IMG/VR virus record: IMGVR_UViG_2802429253_000006
Coordinates: 1-7,898 of that record
Source of the DNA: a virus
Lineage: Duplodnaviria; Heunggongvirae; Uroviricota; Caudoviricetes
DNA: 7,898 bases
Strand: one strand, 5' to 3'
Position 1 is the first letter of the stretch; the number at the start of each line of letters is the position of its first letter. A model generated the notes under the pieces. It searched no databases. It was not told the DNA's origin and saw only the letters and a program-made list of their open reading frames with translations. Positions 1-7,898 of this stretch are shown here, one piece after another. The position numbers were made by a program, and so were the translations under genes.

Positions 1-397
1 TAAGGCAGTTACCCATTTTGAGGTATCCGCTGTCACCGGGAAAAATCATCGTACCGCCATAAAGGTTGGTAAAGTCCCAGCAAATGTTTGTCCCGTTATC
101 GTTCAGGTTAAGGCGCGCCATTGCGTTCCCTGGGCTGTCTATCCATTTTTTAAGGTATAGTTCGCAATACGCATCCTCAACACCTGCCGTCCTGTGAGTT
201 GAGCGAAGTTTTCGCCCAAATATAGCCCCGCTAGTTGGCAATACCTGCTGATACCATGCAGCAGACCAGTCATTAACGGTTTCATTTTTGCTGTCTACAT
301 ATGATTTTGTTACGTAGCTTCCTTGATCAGTTTTTAGTTTACTAACATCGAATTTTAGCGTTTTGATGTCATCAGGAATTACTGTTTTTGTAACCAT
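1..397 (-). CDS. Hypothetical protein, 5' part only (ORF runs off the left edge of the window); third gene of a minus-strand host operon
   Basis: ATG at complement 395-397, preceded by GGAG (complement of 405-408) with a 7-nt spacer. Hand translation of the minus strand is open to the window edge (MVTKTVIPDDIKTLKFDVSKLKTDQGSYVTKSYVDSKNETVNDW...). Absent from the ORF track only because it is incomplete. No family recognised. Confidence 0.5.
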   Translation of the reverse strand, partial: MVTKTVIPDDIKTLKFDVSKLKTDQGSYVTKSYVDSKNETVNDWSAAWYQQVLPTSGAIFGRKLRSTHRTAGVEDAYCELYLKKWIDSPGNAMARLNLNDNGTNICWDFTNLYGGTMIFPGDSGYLKMGNCL

Positions 398-409
398 TGT
401 CTTACTCCA

Positions 410-679
410 TTAAGCCCATGTCCTTACATGCTGATCTGTCGTAATGAAAGGCATTAAAGAAGATATGTTTTTACTGCTATCAACAATCCTCATGTTTACG
501 AAAAAACCACCGCGATCAATGCCTGTACATCTTTCGTTTTCTGGCTCCTCGTAATCGATAATGCAGCCAATAACATCAACAAGAACCCCGTTTTCTTCTT
601 CAAGACTGAACAGGCCACTGTCATATAAAATTGCGTTAAACTGTTCTCTGTTATCGAACCGTAATGTTATATCCCGCAT
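410..679 (-). CDS. Hypothetical small acidic protein (89 aa), middle gene of host operon
   Basis: ORF-track ORF. Its ATG (complement 677-679) overlaps the TAA stop of the upstream gene as TAATG, with AAGGAA 8 nt upstream, which indicates translational coupling. Only 10 nt separate its stop (410-412) from the RBS of the next gene. Confidence 0.5.
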   Translation of the reverse strand: MRDITLRFDNREQFNAILYDSGLFSLEEENGVLVDVIGCIIDYEEPENERCTGIDRGGFFVNMRIVDSSKNISSLMPFITTDQHVRTWA

Positions 680-1815
680 TATACGTATTCCTTAAGCTGC
701 GTATCTGACAATGCTCTGTTCCAGAAACGGAGATTTTTTATATGACCATTAAGGTGTCGTAATCCTGTCGTCGCTTGCCCCCCGATACGAATCACGGCAG
801 CTTCACGAATATATTTCCATACTGTTTTTGTTTCTGTGCTTATATGCTTATTTGCAAATGAGCATGTCATGCCGTCAGCCTTAACCCTGAATCCCATAAC
901 GAGATCTCTTACTCCGCATGACTCATATACACGTCGGTTAGCCCCGCCTATATCGCAATACGAATAACCGTCCTGACTGATAGTTCCAGAAGAACCAAAC
1001 CCCATAATAAATGGACCTCCGGACTGGTGATTTTCTGAATCAATGACACGCGGTGCAGCATTATGAGAAATAAACCAGTTTTTATGGACTTCCACCATGA
1101 ACGTAAAAGGCATGGTATACATATTTTTCATCAGCGGAAATTTACATAAATCTGATGCACGAGTCGCTGGCTCTGTTGTCGTTATGATGAAGGAAGTTGC
1201 ACAAGCACCGTACTCGAATTGCGGGGTGGTTACTTCTATCCAGTCACCTGTTGCAAAAGACCCCACAGCTCTGTCGGCTGCAATTTGCAGCTGCGTACCA
1301 ACCATTCCCCATTCTGGCAGACATTTCAGTGTTGCCTGAAAATATATCCACCCACTACCAGGGTCGATTTCAAAGTTTGCTGTTAATAGCTGGGCATTAC
1401 CACCCGTAATTTGTAGTTCATGAGTCTGTAATGACAAATAGGCGTCACAAAGAAAAGTGTATCCTTCCGAGTTATACCGTTCAAAACGGATACGTGCGCG
1501 AACATTGAGATCACTTCTTACCCTGAACGACGCGGTAACATACGGACCTTTACTGTACTGATCATCGCCAGTCACATCTATGCCTTTATTACCAGCAACT
1601 GTGCATATATTTCTCCCTGTTGTCGTTCCTGCTATATCGCTTCCTACCGTGAAACGTCCATATTTAAACTCAAATTCATCTGTTGATGATGTTACAGATA
1701 TACCACCGCTTTTATTCCACGCATCAGGATTAAAACTATTTACGAACATGTTTGTTCGCTGATTCTCTATCAGCAAACCATATTTTTCAAAACGAGGAAC
1801 GTTATTCCCTGCCAC
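679..1815 (-). pseudogene. 5'-truncated host gene, apparently disrupted by the prophage insertion; C-terminal LamG/concanavalin-like lectin-type domain, possibly phage tail-fibre-like
   Basis: The ORF-track start is a GTG at 1813-1815 with no Shine-Dalgarno sequence. The same frame stays open for three more codons into the Mu-like end and hits a stop at 1825-1827, so the true N-terminus is missing. The C-terminal motif ...HLNGHIKNLRFWNRALSDTQLKEYV is typical of LamG-type jelly-roll domains. Confidence 0.55.
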
Positions 1816-1820
1816 TGTAT

Positions 1821-1842
1821 TGATTCACGAGAAGTACGAAAA
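1821..1842 (+). other. attL MuA end-binding site L1
   Basis: tgattcacgagaagtacgaaaa matches the 22-bp MuA site consensus as I recall it (TGNTTCAYTNNAARYRCGAAAR) with one mismatch at position 9. It sits 5 bp inside the TG terminus. Confidence 0.7.
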
Positions 1843-1925
1843 AAACCGGGAGGATATTGGATTATTCGGGATTTGACGGGATTAGATTTGGTGGGGCTTG
1901 CAAGCCTGTAGAACAGATTTTAGCC

Positions 1926-1947
1926 GTTAAGCATTGAAACGCGAAAA
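1926..1947 (+). other. attL MuA end-binding site L2 (approximate; orientation uncertain)
   Basis: ...attgaaacgcgaaaa: the right half (AAACGCGAAAA) fits the consensus and the left half is poor. Position relative to the end (about 110-130 bp in) matches Mu L2. Confidence 0.4.
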
Positions 1948-1965
1948 TTTGTTAGAAATGGCTTT

Positions 1966-1987
1966 TGTTTCATTAAACATACGAAAA
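1966..1987 (+). other. attL MuA end-binding site L3
   Basis: tgtttcattaaacatacgaaaa matches the MuA site consensus at all but one defined position. Confidence 0.6.
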
Positions 1988-2155
1988 GCAATTGCTTCAC
2001 GCATTATTTCAATTGCAGCTTCAAAAACGCTTCAAACCCGATAACAACCAGGCTTCTGGCGAATGACGTATATCAAAAACAGCTTTTGTTGTTTCAGTAT
2101 CTTACCCTCTAGGTTACTTGAGGGGAAGTGTGTGTTTTAGCTAGGTTCCTGGTTG

Positions 2156-2746
2156 TTATACGGCTTTTTTTACATCTTGTGGATCCTGCAAAGGAGCTAC
2201 AAGACTCTCCTGTTCATTAATCCCATACTTTGACAAAATCTCTTTGCGTTTCTCTTCAGGTAATGCATCTAGCATCATCAACGTCTGGATACTTTGCTGT
2301 GAAAATCCTATAAAGCTGTAAAGTTTCTGTTCATTAAACACAAGAGGCATTAACGCCAATAGTCCACCTTTGCTTAAGAGTTTCAGTGCCTTACGTGCTT
2401 CATCTGGTTCCAGTTCTTCGATCATATTGATTAAGGTTGTAGTTAATTTGTTTATCAGCTCCGAAGAATCCTGCTGCTCATTAGCTTGAGCAGCAGTGCC
2501 AGGAATAGACAGACCTAGGTGTGCAATAACTTGCTCTCGTTCTTTGGTGGGCATAGACATCACATCGTATTCAACTGCTTTCCCCCCCTTCACACCTTCC
2601 TTTTTTCGCTTTATCCAGCCTTGAACATTTGCCCGATAGTGAACACCAGCAACAGATCCTGGCATACCATCAGCAGCCATAATTTCTTGCGGCGTACACC
2701 AGATCGACTTTTTAGTATCACCATTTTCTATAAAGTCACTTTTCAA
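2156..2746 (-). CDS. c: Mu-type repressor c (Repc), 196 aa
   Basis: The protein (MKSDFIENGDTKKSIWCTPQEIMAADGMPGSVAGVHYRANVQGW...QDPQDVKKAV) is near-identical in length and sequence to the phage Mu repressor as I recall it. The start is TTG (complement 2744-2746) with AAGGA 8 nt upstream. It is transcribed leftward toward attL. Confidence 0.9.
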   Translation of the reverse strand: MKSDFIENGDTKKSIWCTPQEIMAADGMPGSVAGVHYRANVQGWIKRKKEGVKGGKAVEYDVMSMPTKEREQVIAHLGLSIPGTAAQANEQQDSSELINKLTTTLINMIEELEPDEARKALKLLSKGGLLALMPLVFNEQKLYSFIGFSQQSIQTLMMLDALPEEKRKEILSKYGINEQESLVAPLQDPQDVKKAV

Positions 2747-2771
2747 AATTTAAATCCTTATTTTTCAATTA

Positions 2772-2800
2772 ATTATGCAAAACACACCTAACAATACCAA
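2772..2800 (-). promoter_or_regulatory. Candidate repressor promoter Pc (minus strand: -35 TTGGTA = complement of 2795-2800, 17-bp spacer, -10 CATAAT = complement of 2772-2777)
   Basis: Sigma70-like hexamers on the minus strand about 30 nt upstream of the c RBS, back to back with the Pe candidate. Confidence 0.35.
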
Positions 2801-2808
2801 AAAGCAGC

Positions 2809-2837
2809 TTTACAAAAAGCTTTTCAGTATTTATCTT
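2809..2837 (+). promoter_or_regulatory. Candidate early promoter Pe (-35 TTTACA 2809-2814, 17-bp spacer, -10 TATCTT 2832-2837)
   Basis: Sigma70-like hexamers with 17-bp spacing. The predicted start near 2843-2845 is about 1028 bp from the prophage end, matching the Pe start position in Mu as I recall it. The palindrome AAAAGCTTTT lies in the spacer. Confidence 0.45.
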
Positions 2838-2914
2838 TTTGGCAAGTAAACTAAGTTTTTACACTTAGTTAAATTGCTAACTTTATAGATTACAAAACTT
2901 AGGAGGGTTTTTAA

Positions 2915-3142
2915 ATGTGTTCCAGCGAAAAGGTCCGTGATTGGCATCGTGCTGATGTGATTGCGGGACTTAAGAAAAGAAAGCTCTCTTTATCAGCTCT
3001 TTCTCGGCAATTTGGTTATGCGCCAACGACATTAGCTAATGCGCTAGAGCGGCACTGGCCAAAGGGCGAACAGATTATTGCTAACGCCCTTGAAACTAAA
3101 CCAGAAGTCATCTGGCCTAGCCGATATCAAGCAGGTGAATAA
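2915..3142 (+). CDS. ner: Ner DNA-binding transcriptional regulator (negative regulator of early transcription), 75 aa
   Basis: The protein ([51 protein letters not shown]...) matches Mu Ner as I recall it. AGGAGG RBS at 2901-2906. The TAA stop at 3140-3142 is one nucleotide before the A start. Confidence 0.9.
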
Positions 3143-3143
3143 T

Positions 3144-5135
3144 ATGGAACTTTGGGTGTCACCGAAAGAGTGTGCGAATCTTCCAGGCTTGCCGAAAACA
3201 TCAGCTGGTGTGATTTATGTCGCTAAGAAGCAAGGATGGCAAAACCGCACTAGGGCAGGTGTCAAAGGAGGTAAGGCAATTGAATACAATGCTAACTCTT
3301 TACCTGTTGAAGCGAAAGCGGCTTTATTGCTTAGGCAAGGAGAGATTGAAACAAGCCTGGGCCGTTTTGAAATCGCCCGCCCCACGCTGGAAGCCCACGA
3401 TTATGATCGTGAGGTGCTGTGGAGCAAATGGGATAACGCCAGCGATTCCCAGCGCAGACTTGCTGAAAAATGGTTGCCTGCAGTTCAGGCCGCAGACGAA
3501 ATGCTGAACCAGGGTATTTCAACAAAAACGGCTTTTGCGACCGTTGCAGGGCATTACCAGGTCAGTGCATCCACTTTGCGTGACAAGTATTACCAGGTAC
3601 AGAAGTTTGCGAAGCCTGACTGGGCGGCTGCGCTTGTTGATGGACGTGGTGCATCCCGTCGCAACGTTCACAAAAGTGAATTTGACGAGGATGCCTGGCA
3701 GTTTCTGATTGCAGATTATCTGCGACCGGAAAAGCCCGCCTTCCGCAAATGTTATGAGCGTCTGGAACTGGCAGCCCGCGAGCATGGCTGGAGTATTCCC
3801 TCCCGTGCCACGGCCTTTCGCCGGATTCAGCAACTGGACGAGGCAATGGTTGTTGCCTGTCGTGAAGGTGAACATGCACTGATGCATCTGATACCGGCAC
3901 AGCAGCGAACTGTGGAACACCTGGACGCCATGCAGTGGATCAACGGCGACGGTTATCTGCATAACGTCTTTGTACGCTGGTTTAACGGTGATGTGATCCG
4001 TCCGAAAACATGGTTCTGGCAGGATGTGAAAACCCGAAAAATTCTGGGCTGGCGCTGCGATGTGAGCGAGAACATTGATTCAATTCGCCTCTCGTTCATG
4101 GATGTTGTGACTCGCTACGGTATCCCGGAGGATTTTCACATCACCATTGATAACACCCGTGGTGCTGCGAATAAATGGCTGACGGGAGGCGCGCCCAATC
4201 GCTACCGCTTTAAGGTAAAAGAGGACGATCCAAAAGGACTGTTTTTACTGATGGGGGCGAAAATGCACTGGACAAGCGTTGTTGCCGGTAAAGGCTGGGG
4301 CCAGGCAAAACCTGTTGAACGTGCTTTCGGTGTTGGTGGGCTTGAGGAATACGTTGATAAGCATCCGGCACTGGCTGGCGCATATACGGGGCCAAATCCG
4401 CAGGCAAAACCTGATAACTATGGCGACCGCGCTGTTGATGCAGAGCTGTTTCTGAAAACCCTTGCCGAAGGTGTGGCGATGTTCAATGCCAGAACAGGCC
4501 GTGAAACAGAAATGTGCGGGGGCAAACTCTCGTTTGATGATGTTTTCGAGCGTGAATACGCCAGAACGATTGTGCGTAAGCCAACCGAAGAACAAAAACG
4601 GATGCTGTTACTGCCTGCCGAGGCGGTGAACGTTTCACGCAAAGGCGAGTTTACGCTTAAAGTTGGCGGCTCCCTTAAAGGCGCGAAAAACGTTTATTAC
4701 AACATGGCGTTAATGAATGCCGGAGTGAAAAAAGTTGTGGTCAGGTTTGATCCACAGCAGCTACACAGCACGGTTTATTGCTACACCCTGGACGGTCGGT
4801 TTATCTGTGAAGCGGAATGTCTGGCACCAGTTGCATTTAATGATGCTGCGGCAGGCCGTGAGTATCGTCGACGCCAGAAACAACTGAAATCTGCAACTAA
4901 AGCAGCCATTAAGGCGCAGAAGCAAATGGACGCGCTGGAAGTTGCTGAACTGCTGCCGCAGATAGCCGAACCAGCAGCGCCAGAATCAAGGGTTGTTGGT
5001 ATTTTCCGGCCTTCCGGTAACACGGTGCAGGTGAAATACCAGGAACCCGATGATGAATATGAAACTGATCGTGATGAATATCTGAATCACTCGCTGGATA
5101 TTCTGGAACAGAACAGACGTAAAAAAGCCATTTAA
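3144..5135 (+). CDS. A: MuA DDE transposase, 663 aa
   Basis: The N-terminus [32 protein letters not shown]... and the C-terminus ...[10 protein letters not shown] (the Mu transposase tail recognised by ClpX) are both present. From ATG 3144 the catalytic codons fall at the canonical positions: D269 (GAC 3948-3950, in NGDGY), D336 (GAT 4149-4151, in ITIDNT) and E392 (GAA 4317-4319, in PVERAF). The ORF track's start at 3078 is an in-frame extension that overlaps ner. Confidence 0.95.
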
Positions 5136-5173
5136 TTAACGTTTAAACAAAATTTAATTACGAGGTTATTCAG

Positions 5174-6112
5174 ATGAATATTTCTGATATTCGCGCAGGA
5201 CTGCGCACGCTTGTAGAAAGCGAAAAAACAACTTATGCGCAAATCGCCCGCGAATCTGGAGTTGCCGCAGGAACGTTAAGCGCGTTCGTGAATAACAAGT
5301 ACAACGGCGATAATGAGCGTGTTGCGCAGACGCTGGAACGCTGGCTGGAGAACTATCACCGCGCCGCAGAACTGCCAGAACCCCCTCGTTTTGTGGAAAC
5401 CAGAACAGCACGTCAAATCTGGACGAGTATGCGCTTTGCCAGCCTGACTGAAAGTATTTCTGTTATCTGCGGTAATCCAGGTGTGGGAAAAACTGAAGCA
5501 GCCCGCGAATTTCGTCGCACCAATAACAATGTCTGGATGATCACCATTACCCCATCCTGTGCCAGTGTTCTGGAATGCCTGACTGAACTGGCTTATGAAC
5601 TGGGAATGAATGACGCACCGCGCCGTAAGGGGCCACTCTCCCGCGCTTTGCGACGCCGCCTTGAAGGTACGCAGGGGCTGGTCATTATCGACGAAGCTGA
5701 TCATCTTGGCGCTGAGGTTCTGGAAGAACTCCGCCTGTTACAGGAATCCGCCCGTATTGGTCTTGTTCTGATGGGGAATCACCGTGTTTATTCAAACATG
5801 ACCGGTGGTAACAGAACGGTTGAATTTGCCCGCCTGTTTTCCCGTATTGCAAAGCGGACGGCAATTAATAAAACCAAAATTGACGATGTAAAAGCCATTG
5901 CGGATGCCTGGCAAATTACCGGCGAAAACGAGCGGGAATTATTACAGCAGATTGCTCAAAAACCAGGTGCGCTTCGCATCCTGAACCACTCGCTGCGCCT
6001 TGCGGCCATGACCGCCCACGGTAAAGGTGAACGTGTTAATGAAGATTATCTGCGTCAGGCTTTCCGTGAATTAGACCTGGACGTTGATATTTCAACGCTG
6101 CTGCGTAATTAA
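5174..6112 (+). CDS. B: MuB ATP-dependent target-DNA activator (AAA+ ATPase), 312 aa
   Basis: 312 aa with Walker A GNPGVGKT and Walker B LVIIDEAD. The N-terminus MNISDIRAGLRTLVESEKTTYAQIARESGVAAGTLSAFVNNKY contains an HTH and matches Mu B as I recall it. RBS ACGAGG at 5160-5165. Confidence 0.95.
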   Translation: MNISDIRAGLRTLVESEKTTYAQIARESGVAAGTLSAFVNNKYNGDNERVAQTLERWLENYHRAAELPEPPRFVETRTARQIWTSMRFASLTESISVICGNPGVGKTEAAREFRRTNNNVWMITITPSCASVLECLTELAYELGMNDAPRRKGPLSRALRRRLEGTQGLVIIDEADHLGAEVLEELRLLQESARIGLVLMGNHRVYSNMTGGNRTVEFARLFSRIAKRTAINKTKIDDVKAIADAWQITGENERELLQQIAQKPGALRILNHSLRLAAMTAHGKGERVNEDYLRQAFRELDLDVDISTLLRN

Positions 6113-6127
6113 GAAGGAGAAGAAATT

Positions 6128-6355
6128 ATGATGGCCCGAAATATAAAAATGGCAACGGATGCGCAGAACTGGTTACAGGCGCGCGGGAGTCATGTAAATG
6201 AATCATATCTCGGCGTGGCGCGTCCGATTCTTGAAATCACTTACCCACCGGTGGAACTGGTAAAAAGCGCGGTCAGAATTATGGAGCATAAGTCCGGGGT
6301 GGCCCGTTCTGTATGGACGGCCCGTCTTAATGGTTGCCAGATTATCTGGAGATAA
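6128..6355 (+). CDS. kil: Small early protein at the position of Mu kil (75 aa); identity assigned by position only
   Basis: First ORF after B, with RBS AGGAG at 6115-6119 and an 8-nt spacer. Its size and position match Mu kil (about 74 aa). I do not recognise the sequence itself. Confidence 0.5.
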
Positions 6356-6357
6356 CG

Positions 6358-6588
6358 ATGTGTATTAAAGCTGAAAAATATATTGAATGGGTTAAACACT
6401 GTCAGTGCCACGGGGTGCCGCTGACGACATATAAATGCCCCGGATGTGGTGAACAGATTATGACGCAATGCTCACCCGAAAAGGAAATTCGGGATTCCCT
6501 GACATGTTGTCCGTGGTGCAGCGCGGTTTTCTTTAAGCAGGTAGAAGGCGCGAAGGTAAAGGTCAGCGCAATTATTCAGAATCAATAA
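6358..6588 (+). CDS. Cys-rich small protein, putative zinc ribbon (76 aa from ATG 6358)
   Basis: GGAG at 6348-6351 with a 6-nt spacer to ATG 6358. Cysteine pairs are C-x-C-H (CQCH), C-x2-C (CPGC) and CC-x2-C (CCPWC). The ORF track's start at 6334 is a TTG inside the upstream gene and is less likely. Confidence 0.6.
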   Translation: MCIKAEKYIEWVKHCQCHGVPLTTYKCPGCGEQIMTQCSPEKEIRDSLTCCPWCSAVFFKQVEGAKVKVSAIIQNQ

Positions 6589-6599
6589 GGAGAAACAAA

Positions 6600-6863
6600 A
6601 TGGCAAAAGTCATTATCGAAATCAAAAATGTGACATCTGAAGTTAAAGGGCAGCATTTACGCACCAATGTTAACGTGGACCACAGCGCAGAACTGGATGG
6701 TGATGAGTACACGCTTGCTGGTGCGATAGCGTTACTGGTTCTGGAAAAAAGCCGGGATATCGTTCGCGAGTCAGCCCATGAGGCCATTGAAATACTGAAA
6801 AATGATGGCGTCATTTCGGGTGGCAGTGTCACAGAAGCGACAGTTGAAGGAACACGTCACTGA
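6600..6863 (+). CDS. Hypothetical early-region protein, acidic (87 aa)
   Basis: AAGGAG at 6588-6593 with a 6-nt spacer to ATG 6600. Packed directly after the previous stop in the same orientation. Confidence 0.6.
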   Translation: MAKVIIEIKNVTSEVKGQHLRTNVNVDHSAELDGDEYTLAGAIALLVLEKSRDIVRESAHEAIEILKNDGVISGGSVTEATVEGTRH

Positions 6864-6877
6864 AAGGAACGCTGACA

Positions 6878-7297
6878 ATGAACACCAAAATCAGAAACGA
6901 AATTCAGGCATTAATTCGAATAAAAATGCGTAATAACAATCCAGGAGAATTACGCGAATTTATTTTCACCCGCAAAGTTTATGAGCATGGTGAAACTACT
7001 TATCTGATTACATTTGACCATTACAGCATTTGTGCGCGTTATTGTGGCGAAAACATCTCTAATGCCATCACGTTTGGCGGTGCGTTTAACGAGGATTTAT
7101 GGGAATACGTCATGGACCGCGGATACATCAGCGCGTCAGACCCGGACGCACGGGAGCAGTGGCAGAACATCTGGCGCGATTACCGGCAAATGGCGAAAGG
7201 CTGGACGCAGGGGACGTATTCTTCCCTTGCCCTGAAAGCGGTTCAGTTATCGCTGCGGCATATTCCGGCATCACTGCGTGAACCCCTGTTGTACTGA
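6878..7297 (+). CDS. Hypothetical early-region protein (139 aa)
   Basis: AAGGA at 6864-6868 with a 9-nt spacer to ATG 6878. It is the longest frame here. The overlapping alternative-frame ORFs in the track lack an RBS. Confidence 0.6.
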   Translation: MNTKIRNEIQALIRIKMRNNNPGELREFIFTRKVYEHGETTYLITFDHYSICARYCGENISNAITFGGAFNEDLWEYVMDRGYISASDPDAREQWQNIWRDYRQMAKGWTQGTYSSLALKAVQLSLRHIPASLREPLLY

Positions 7298-7309
7298 GTG
7301 GTGACCGGA

Positions 7310-7597
7310 ATGATGTGTAAGCGTAAACGCTGGTCACGCGAAGACCGGGAATTTATCGAAGCCAGTGTCTGGAAAATGACCGTCGAGGAAATGGCGAAAA
7401 AACTGAAAGTTGCCACAACCGCTCTCCGGGCACATGCCAGAAGGCACGGAATATCGTTGTGTGTTTACCGAATAAGTGAGCACGACAAATATTTGTGTCG
7501 TGAACTTTATAAAGAAGGGCTGGCTATTCATGTCATTGCCCAAAAGATGGAATTAAGCAATCGTGCTGTATCCAGCATTGTATACAGCGAATATTAA
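7310..7597 (+). CDS. Hypothetical early-region protein with helix-turn-helix-like segments (about 95 aa; start at GTG 7298, ATG 7310 or ATG 7313)
   Basis: Frame open from 7298 to the TAA at 7595-7597. ATG 7310 and 7313 are preceded by GGTGA (7300-7304). The segments MTVEEMAKKLKVATTALRAHARRHGI and LAIHVIAQKMELSNRAVSSIV look like HTH motifs. Confidence 0.55.
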   Translation: MMCKRKRWSREDREFIEASVWKMTVEEMAKKLKVATTALRAHARRHGISLCVYRISEHDKYLCRELYKEGLAIHVIAQKMELSNRAVSSIVYSEY

Positions 7598-7615
7598 TTA
7601 ACAGGAGCTTTATTT

Positions 7616-7898
7616 ATGGCTAAATCAGCAAAGCGTATTAAAAGTGCCGCAGCGACTTATGTCCCACAATCCCGCGATGCCGTGGTATGTGATATCCGCC
7701 GGATTGGGGACCTGCAACGCGAAGCAGCACGACTTGAAACGGAAATGAATGACGCTATCGCTGAAATTACTGAGAAATACGCCTCACAGATTGCGCCCCT
7801 TAAAACCAGTATCGAAACCCTTTCAAAAGGCGTTCAGGGATGGTGTGAAGCGAACCGTGACGAACTGACGAACGGCGGCAAGGTGAAGACGGCAAACC
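7616..7898 (+). CDS. gam: Gam host-nuclease inhibitor (Ku-like DNA end-binding protein), N-terminal 94 codons; continues beyond the window
   Basis: MAKSAKRIKSAAATYVPQSRDAVVCDIRRIGDLQREAARLETEMNDAIAEITEKY...GWCEANRDELTNGGKVKTAN matches Mu Gam as I recall it. AGGAG RBS at 7603-7607. Confidence 0.9.
   Translation, partial: MAKSAKRIKSAAATYVPQSRDAVVCDIRRIGDLQREAARLETEMNDAIAEITEKYASQIAPLKTSIETLSKGVQGWCEANRDELTNGGKVKTAN

Follow-up and report, generated by a model that had tools for sequence, protein, structure and literature searches.

Gene 6 of a Mu-type prophage encodes a predicted zinc-ribbon protein of a large single-gene family

Small zinc proteins of phages and prophages

Several cysteine-rich phage proteins of 60–75 aa, namely Mu Com, P2 Ogr/P4 Delta and Lar/RalR, exert their effects by binding to RNA, to RNA polymerase or to restriction complexes. 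Two of them contain zinc fingers: Com activates the translation of mom in Mu, and Ogr the late genes of P2. These proteins illustrate how a protein of the size of Mu gp6 can work, but they have no detectable homology to it. No Pfam match to models of the Com, Ogr/Delta or DksA/TraR type was found for the gp6 sequence studied here. Kinship with Lar/RalR (TIGR03655) was considered and rejected. The model gave weak matches in eight of 80 members of the gp6 family (best E-value 0.0012, below the cut-off of 39.6 bits), and the hhalign comparison with RalR of E. coli K-12 yielded a probability of 26.7% over 15 columns, which correspond to a single knuckle.

YnfU, a putative zinc-binding protein encoded in the Qin cryptic prophage of E. 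coli K-12 (NF038384/PF23499), is also small and contains a ribbon core of the type CPxC...CPHC. Comparison of YnfU with the gp6 family by means of hhalign resulted in a probability of 92.6% and an E-value of 4.6e-7 over 37 columns that comprise the ribbon core only. The YnfU model produced sub-threshold matches in 24 of the 80 family members, the best of which reached 25.1 bits compared to an NCBI cut-off of 36; the gp6 studied here gave no match at E ≤ 0.1. Furthermore, YnfU consists of 56 aa, contains neither the N-terminal helix nor the P-P-x-G-E-x-W-D-S signature of the gp6 family, and is encoded in the late/lysis region of Qin, unlike gp6 with its early-operon gene. Judged from these comparisons, YnfU would be a distant relative of gp6 at most and not a fellow family member.

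YdaE from the Rac prophage resembles gp6 in being a tiny zinc-binding protein that is encoded right after an early-operon kil gene of the host-killing or division-inhibiting type, to which it is probably coupled. In Rac of E. coli K-12 (locus L051, 6839–7230), kilR is followed by ydaE with a 1-nt overlap, and ydaE is annotated as a 'zinc-binding protein' of 56 aa. Kinship of YdaE with gp6 was rejected on the basis of an hhalign probability of 0.1% and a differing cysteine pattern (CxxxxC...CxxxC). Nor do the two Kil proteins, Kil of Mu and KilR of Rac, fall into the same Pfam family. The likeness of the kilR–ydaE and kil–gene 6 pairs may represent a convergent pairing or a coincidence.

At the level of the fold, and only there, gp6 resembles a number of stand-alone C4 zinc ribbons: LysW (the alpha-aminoadipate carrier protein), MasE, the delta subunit of sarcosine oxidase, ZitP, the N-terminal domain of NrdR, and RNA polymerase subunit P/Rpo12. 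RBR/IBR domains were listed beside MasE, the sarcosine oxidase delta subunit, ZitP and NrdR in the comparison with gp6. LysW and the other stand-alone ribbons displayed no significant sequence or Foldseek similarity to gp6. Compared to LysW-type ribbons, gp6 possesses an extra N-terminal helix and a fifth strand, and lacks both the acidic carrier tail and the metabolic context.

The closest described system is gene 6 of phage Mu itself. Mu is one of the best-studied phages, yet gene 6 lies in its 'semi-essential early' region, where most genes have no assigned function (PMC3820752; see also PMC4553209). The gene is already catalogued in PF26833 and PHROG 3786, in a family that is named after it. 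Both entries are without an assigned function, as is the whole family; membership therefore tells what gp6 is, not what it does. A literature search for the function of gp6, E5, Mup06, PF26833 or YnfU returned nothing.

Gene 6 in the left end of a Mu-type prophage

The stretch of DNA that was analysed, referred to as the window, comprises 7,898 nucleotides (positions 1 to 7,898 of the IMG/VR record IMGVR_UViG_2802429253_000006). According to the list of open reading frames and family scans, it contains the left end of a Mu-type transposable prophage. The gene order c-ner-A-B-kil-6-7-8-9 agrees with the records of Mu, D108 and SfMu. The individual features are:

2156–2746, minus strand: c, repressor ORF of 196 aa (ORF list)
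2915–3142: ner (ORF list, family scans)
between ner and B: transposase gene A (ORF list, family scans)
5174–6112: B (MuB; PF09077, E-value 3e-33)
6128–6355, plus strand: kil, 75 aa (PHROG 2743 'Kil protein', E-value 4e-43; annotated as kil in Mu and D108)
6348–6351, plus strand: Shine-Dalgarno motif GGAG of gene 6, six bases 5' of the ATG and within the 3' end of kil (read directly)
6358–6588, plus strand: gene 6, ortholog of gp6 (E5), 76 aa plus TAA (identity to Mu and D108, PHROG 3786)
6600–6863: homolog of gene 7 (family scans), with homologs of genes 8 and 9 downstream

The product of gene 6 is 96% identical to Mu Mup06 (NP_050610, formerly E5) over 76 of 76 residues (tblastn E-value 2e-43) and 93% identical to that of D108 gene 6. 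It matches PHROG 3786 over residues 1–76 with an E-value of 9.3e-40. PF26833 ('Phage_Mu_gp6') is a precomputed label on close homologs, among them the 95% identical P0001, so that the placement of the window protein in this Pfam family rests on the labels of its homologs and not on a direct model score. Length (76 aa), start codon and the site between kil and gene 7 are shared with Mu gp6 and D108 gene 6, and three conservative substitutions (K63E, A69V, V72I) separate the window protein from Mu gp6. With virtual certainty, the ORF at 6358–6588 corresponds to gene 6 of a Mu-type prophage, whose product gp6 was formerly called E5, and is therefore already known. In this respect the finding re-identifies a catalogued gene, which the original prediction had not recognised, and is real but ordinary; the point of interest is the target of a widespread family of small zinc ribbons.

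The ORF is intact and extends from ATG 6358–6360 to TAA 6586–6588; it encodes the 76 residues MCIKAEKYIEWVKHCQCHGVPLTTYKCPGCGEQIMTQCSPEKEIRDSLTCCPWCSAVFFKQVEGAKVKVSAIIQNQ. The stop codon of kil (TAA, 6353–6355) ends two bases ahead of the ATG. A TTG at 6334 is in frame but lies within the coding sequence of kil, and no Shine-Dalgarno motif was found in the 20 bases preceding it. In the Mu reference annotation, Mup06 begins at the equivalent ATG and likewise comprises 76 aa. Of 25 Mu-clade loci on viral contigs, 24 share the GGAG-N6-ATG junction CTGGAGATAACGATG unchanged, and the remaining one differs by a single base in the spacer. Because the Mup06 annotation agrees, the junction is conserved and the TTG has no Shine-Dalgarno motif, translation most likely begins at ATG 6358; this is the start that the original prediction had preferred to TTG 6334 on account of the GGAG spacing. 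As only 2 nt separate the kil stop codon from the ATG, translation of gene 6 is probably coupled to that of kil.

The annotation of bacterial genomes leaves room for the view that the ORF is a chance occurrence or an untranslated region. Among the 12 complete E. coli genomes that match best, 10 have no RefSeq feature over it; in E. coli W (locus L046, 1501–1731) it coincides with a 231-bp unannotated gap across which the locus tags jump from RS01600 to RS01590. However, the ORF is intact in E. coli W and in 24 of the 25 Mu-clade viral-contig loci, a good Shine-Dalgarno motif precedes it, and AlphaFold2 predicts a confident fold for its product. The four-cysteine signature is kept across 526 homologous clusters, with homologs detectable down to about 25% identity. 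When the copies from the window, Mu, D108 and SfMu were compared, pN/pS values, which derive from few substitutions, were 0.16–0.57 in the frame of gene 6 versus 0.57–1.8 in the two other frames, and were below 1 in the gene 6 frame only. This conservation pattern is far beyond chance. By sequence criteria it effectively refutes the reading as a non-gene, which we regard as having a negligible probability. The original prediction of a real cysteine-rich mini-protein in an early operon is thus borne out by the conserved family, the intact ORF and the four-cysteine signature, and gene 6 follows directly after B and kil as in Mu and D108.

A megablast search with positions 5900–7000 of the window against phage records identified phage Mu with 88.8% identity over the whole query, and D108 and Mu_3F6 with 95–97% identity across its first ~710 bases. 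Features annotated beneath the match are B, kil and three hypothetical genes. The D108/Mu_3F6 match (window 5900 to about 6610) ends where gene 6 ends (~6600–6615), and from gene 7 onward the window aligns with Mu-type phages only (88.8% overall). This pattern suggests a mosaic junction at the boundary of genes 6 and 7, which may be a recombination breakpoint.

Further observations concern the remainder of the window. The mechanically derived transposase ORF of 685 aa starts at TTG 3078 (3078–5135) and runs over into ner; a start at ATG 3144 (MELWVSPKE...), just downstream of the ner stop codon at 3142, gives 663 aa, as in Mu A. At position 1816 begins the left end of the Mu type, TGTATTGATTCAC... 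(1816–1850), which agrees with the attL terminus of Mu. Positions 1–1819 show 96–98% identity to the tail-fibre genes of another E. coli prophage, one of the lambdoid type. Where uninterrupted, this tail-fibre gene has 2,358 bp, and the window retains only its 3' 1,137 bp (ORF 679–1815, minus strand). The Mu-like element has therefore inserted into the tail-fibre gene of a resident prophage and disrupted it. No RNA family was detected anywhere in the window by Rfam. A terminator-like hairpin at 6511–6526 within the gene 6 coding sequence (one versus 1.0 in shuffled sequence) and four promoter-like sites on the minus strand (four versus 1.8 ± 1.2 in shuffled sequence) were attributed to chance, and two minus-strand ORFs that overlap gene 6 (6241–6468 and 6472–6606) were dismissed as mechanical and without support.

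Conserved cysteines and predicted fold

The nine cysteines of gp6 occupy residues 2, 15, 17, 27, 30, 38, 50, 51 and 54. Direct reading of the sequence gave the motifs C15-x-C17-H18, C27-P-G-C30 and C50-C51-P-W-C54, in agreement with the arrangement CxCH, CxxC and CCxxC noted originally. The structural elements of the protein are encoded as follows:

6364–6408, plus strand: N-terminal alpha-helix, residues 3–17, with conserved Y8, an aromatic residue at 11 and hydrophobic residues at 12 and 15 (AlphaFold2, column conservation)
6436–6447, plus strand: first zinc knuckle C27-P28-G29-C30, in the turn between strands 22–26 and 33–37 (conservation, model)
6472–6498, plus strand: signature loop and strand, S-P-E-K-E-I-R-D-S in the window (column conservation)
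6508–6519, plus strand: second zinc knuckle C51-P52-W53-C54, in the turn between strands 44–50 and 57–63 (conservation, model)

In an alignment of orthologs and distant homologs from Chi-like, Pseudomonas and Serratia phages, only C27, C30, C51 and C54 are conserved. Among 142 representatives, the degree of conservation is 91% for C27, 98% for C30 and 100% for both C51 and C54; the prolines P28 and P52 are found in 99% and 94%, respectively. The four ligands follow the spacing C27-x2-C30, 20 intervening residues, C51-x2-C54, and are invariant in 10 distinct variants of the Mu clade, where C50 likewise never varies.

The other five cysteines behave differently. Most relatives contain four or five cysteines, and only one of the 142 others contains nine. 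In the relatives, the columns of C15, C17, C38 and C50 are mostly occupied by L/A/V, A, A and T/S, respectively. In SfMu-type orthologs, H14, C15, C17 and H18 are replaced by R, V, N/R/S and N, and within the Mu clade C2 and C38 are exchanged for S in other variants. Because H14, C15, C17 and H18 are replaced in the SfMu-type orthologs, the CxCH motif is, as far as the alignments tell, peculiar to certain lineages and does not constitute a conserved metal site. It is strongly supported that all five additional cysteines are lineage-specific replacements at positions where relatives contain small or hydrophobic residues.

A second metal site or a redox-active cysteine cluster in gp6 of the Mu lineage, with ligands from C2, H14, C15, C17, H18, C38 and C50 besides the C4 ribbon, would account for the fact that nine cysteines and two histidines in 76 residues make this protein an outlier, and the invariance of C50 within the Mu clade fits such a role. 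However, H14, C15, C17 and H18 are lost in the SfMu-type orthologs, C2 and C38 are replaced by S elsewhere, the corresponding columns of the family hold packing residues and not ligands, and C15 and C17 point to opposite faces of the helix in the AlphaFold2 model. A second site is therefore improbable, be it metal-binding or redox-active. In contrast, gp6 is very probably a single C4 zinc ribbon, in which C27, C30, C51 and C54 hold one predicted structural zinc. The original proposal of one or two zinc sites is accordingly narrowed to one, since only these four cysteines are conserved family-wide.

The AlphaFold2 model of gp6 has a pLDDT of 91.5. In addition to the helix, it contains five strands (residues 22–26, 33–37, 44–50, 57–63 and 66–72), and the two knuckles fall between strands 1/2 and 3/4, that is, into beta-hairpin turns. 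The model strongly supports a predicted fold in which the N-terminal helix is packed on a five-stranded zinc ribbon. The structure prediction that had been proposed as a check thus resulted in a confident fold with both CxxC knuckles at hairpin turns, and the assignment as a zinc-ribbon-type protein fits both the conservation of the C4 knuckles and the predicted topology. A Foldseek search of the PDB gave no significant structural match. When the family profile was compared with PDB sequences, only generic, non-significant zinc-finger matches were found (best E-value 0.0077). All sub-threshold Pfam and NCBIfam matches across the 80 family members are to zinc-ribbon families. The predicted fold class of gp6 is clear, without a relative of known function.

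Apart from the ligands, the 142 representatives share Y8, G19, an aromatic residue ([YF]) at position 25, T36 and F59-K60, as well as the loop consensus P39-P40-x-G42-[ED]43-x-W45-D46-[ST]47. The window protein conforms to this signature save for S39 instead of P, K42 instead of G and R45 instead of W. Column 45 contains W in 73% and an aromatic residue in 94% of the representatives, and D46 is present in 91%. R45 (CGG, 6490–6492) occurs in the window, in Mu and in the prophage of E. coli W and is confined to the lineage of Mu proper; D108, SfMu and all other variants of the Mu clade contain W45. A single base change accounts for the W45R exchange, which affects one of the best-conserved positions outside the ligands.

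Some copies of the gene look degraded. In P0005, which represents a Salmonella cluster of 74 members, the zinc ligand C30 is replaced by Y (CPKYKEQ), and the copy in locus L033 (3556–3784) is truncated at 42 aa by a disruption of the frame.

Distribution of the family and candidate roles

An exhaustive profile search over 1.84 billion representatives identified 526 clusters (50% identity) of the gp6 family at E ≤ 1e-3 and 201 clusters at E ≤ 1e-10. The members are mostly stand-alone proteins of 70–95 aa. They occur in Mu, D108, SfMu and Mu-like phages of Yersinia; in distant Mu-like phages the gene follows DUF3164 or a 106-aa gene of unknown function. In a lambdoid Salmonella prophage (L037), the gp6-like gene belongs to the early-left operon, in which KilR and a Gam-like gene lie upstream of it, and it overlaps the end of a 779-aa YdfE-type gene; an integrase gene lies downstream and an HSDR_N protein is encoded nearby. 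Chi-like Salmonella phages (Chi gp72), Pseudomonas Casjensviridae and KPP25-type phages, and a Serratia phage contain the gene among small early genes; in one of these cases (L045) it is found near a cytosine (DNA) methylase and RdgC. A plasmid-like contig of roughly 100 kb carries it between a Toprim primase and ParA. Among complete E. coli genomes gp6 is rare (37 of 5,426). A scan of genome contigs returned no more than two matches, both short and partial and both in Opitutales MAGs; they are no guide to the taxonomic spread.

An all-versus-all comparison of the ORFs within 3.5 kb in 11 representative loci revealed no neighbour family that is shared across phage types. Of 22 long members seen, ten were scanned, and no Pfam domain was found outside the gp6 module. 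None of the 22 resembles the genes upstream of stand-alone members, and consequently they provide no Rosetta-stone link. In four of the long proteins (P0052, P0070, P0096 and P0097; 242–357 aa), the gp6 domain is fused to an N-terminal region with HAEALEMN-like repeats, which matches no Pfam family and is unlike the upstream neighbours of stand-alone members. Because there is no recurring neighbour and no informative fusion, gene 6 appears from these comparisons to behave as a mobile, self-sufficient single-gene module of early regions. The family is large and travels alone between unrelated mobile elements, without an obligatory partner gene.

The explanation that we prefer combines these findings. 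Gene 6 belongs to the transcription unit of the early region, in which it comes right behind A and B, the genes for transposition, and kil, the gene for host killing. Its product is most likely translated from ATG 6358, probably coupled to kil, and very probably folds as a helix plus zinc ribbon around a single structural zinc. It would act stoichiometrically, by binding and without catalysis, because it is tiny, contains no catalytic motif, has no partner gene and is mobile as a single gene; binding is also suggested by the fact that the conserved non-ligand residues are packing or surface-loop residues. According to this model, gp6 is a non-essential accessory protein that would bind, and thus modulate, a macromolecule of the host or of a competitor in early lytic development. 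In unrelated elements the gene keeps turning up next to genes for transposition, recombination, replication and DNA modification; the most likely target would therefore be a macromolecule involved in DNA transactions or defence. Taken as a whole, the explanation of gp6 as Mu gene 6, a zinc ribbon and a stoichiometric accessory binder is moderately probable; that the bound partner is a host macromolecule is a tentative proposal. Binding and inhibition of host proteins had been suggested in the original prediction; the analyses pointed to no particular target.

In a narrower form of the binder model, gp6 would serve in anti-defence or against competitors by neutralising a bacterial immune or exclusion protein. 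Such a role would explain why gene 6 hops between early regions of unrelated phages, and it is in line with the patchy spread as a single gene in Mu-likes, lambdoid prophages, Chi-like and Pseudomonas phages and the plasmid-like element. The gene is always found among early accessory genes, such as those for Gam, KilR and HSDR_N in L037 and for the DNA methylase and RdgC in L045, and the exchange W45R at a normally conserved aromatic position of the Mu lineage could reflect an arms race. However, the window gp6 has no match in PADLOC-DB, where relatives give only noise at E > 0.01; PHROGs and NCBIfam contain no anti-defence annotation for gp6, with nothing above threshold in NCBIfam; the Lar/RalR restriction-alleviation family is unrelated; there is no recurrent link with a particular defence or anti-defence gene; and support from the literature was not found. 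We consider the anti-defence role unlikely. Alternatively, gp6 might be a regulator that tunes early/middle expression or transposition by binding RNA or DNA, as zinc ribbons are common nucleic-acid-binding modules. Weak sub-threshold matches to the 'Zn-ribbon RNA-binding protein' PRK14890 (10 of 80 members), the HVO_2753 family, NrdR, Brz ribbons and archaeal ribosomal zinc-ribbon proteins point in this direction, as do the conserved K60 and basic residues at positions 14 and 16 and the adjoining DNA transposition and replication genes. In contrast, the net charge is only about +2, significant matches to DNA- or RNA-binding families, including Com, Ogr/Delta and DksA/TraR in Pfam, were not obtained, and the gene is present in phages whose regulatory circuits are unrelated, which speaks against a target in cis that is specific to one phage. 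A regulatory function is thus quite improbable.

The gene arrangement in Mu would also be compatible with gp6 being a modulator, antidote or chaperone of Kil, given that the 2-nt gap suggests translational coupling, the adjacency of kil and gene 6 is invariant in the Mu clade, and the Rac prophage contains the analogous pair kilR–ydaE. However, tight packing is usual in phage operons, YdaE is not homologous to gp6, and no neighbour of the gene recurs. In distant Mu-likes, Chi-like phages, Pseudomonas phages and the plasmid-like element, gp6 homologs are present but Kil homologs are not. We therefore regard a partnership with Kil as very improbable.

The gp6 family, with at least 526 clusters at 50% identity, might represent a class of single-gene factors for host takeover or anti-defence that is widely mobile and has gone unrecognised; we regard this more far-reaching reading as doubtful. 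If true, the conserved helix and the P-P-x-G-E-x-W-D-S loop would provide the surface by which gp6 docks to a single bacterial target that is itself conserved, such as a protein of DNA repair, replication or immunity; the presence of the gene in early regions of transposable, lambdoid, Chi-like and Pseudomonas phages and of the plasmid-like element would be explained; and W45R would be an arms-race substitution. Finding a host target would establish a new family of small-protein effectors. The description of gp6 as a C4 ribbon with one predicted zinc site and a distinct signature shared by the family yields a compact, testable object: 76 residues, four ligand cysteines and one conserved loop.

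A minor observation concerns the lambdoid Salmonella prophage L037. The 779-aa protein encoded at 4669–7008 comprises YdfE_N and YdfE_C, and its C-terminal part resembles, by eye, single-strand-annealing recombinases. The gene presumably occupies the place where recE/recT are located in Rac.
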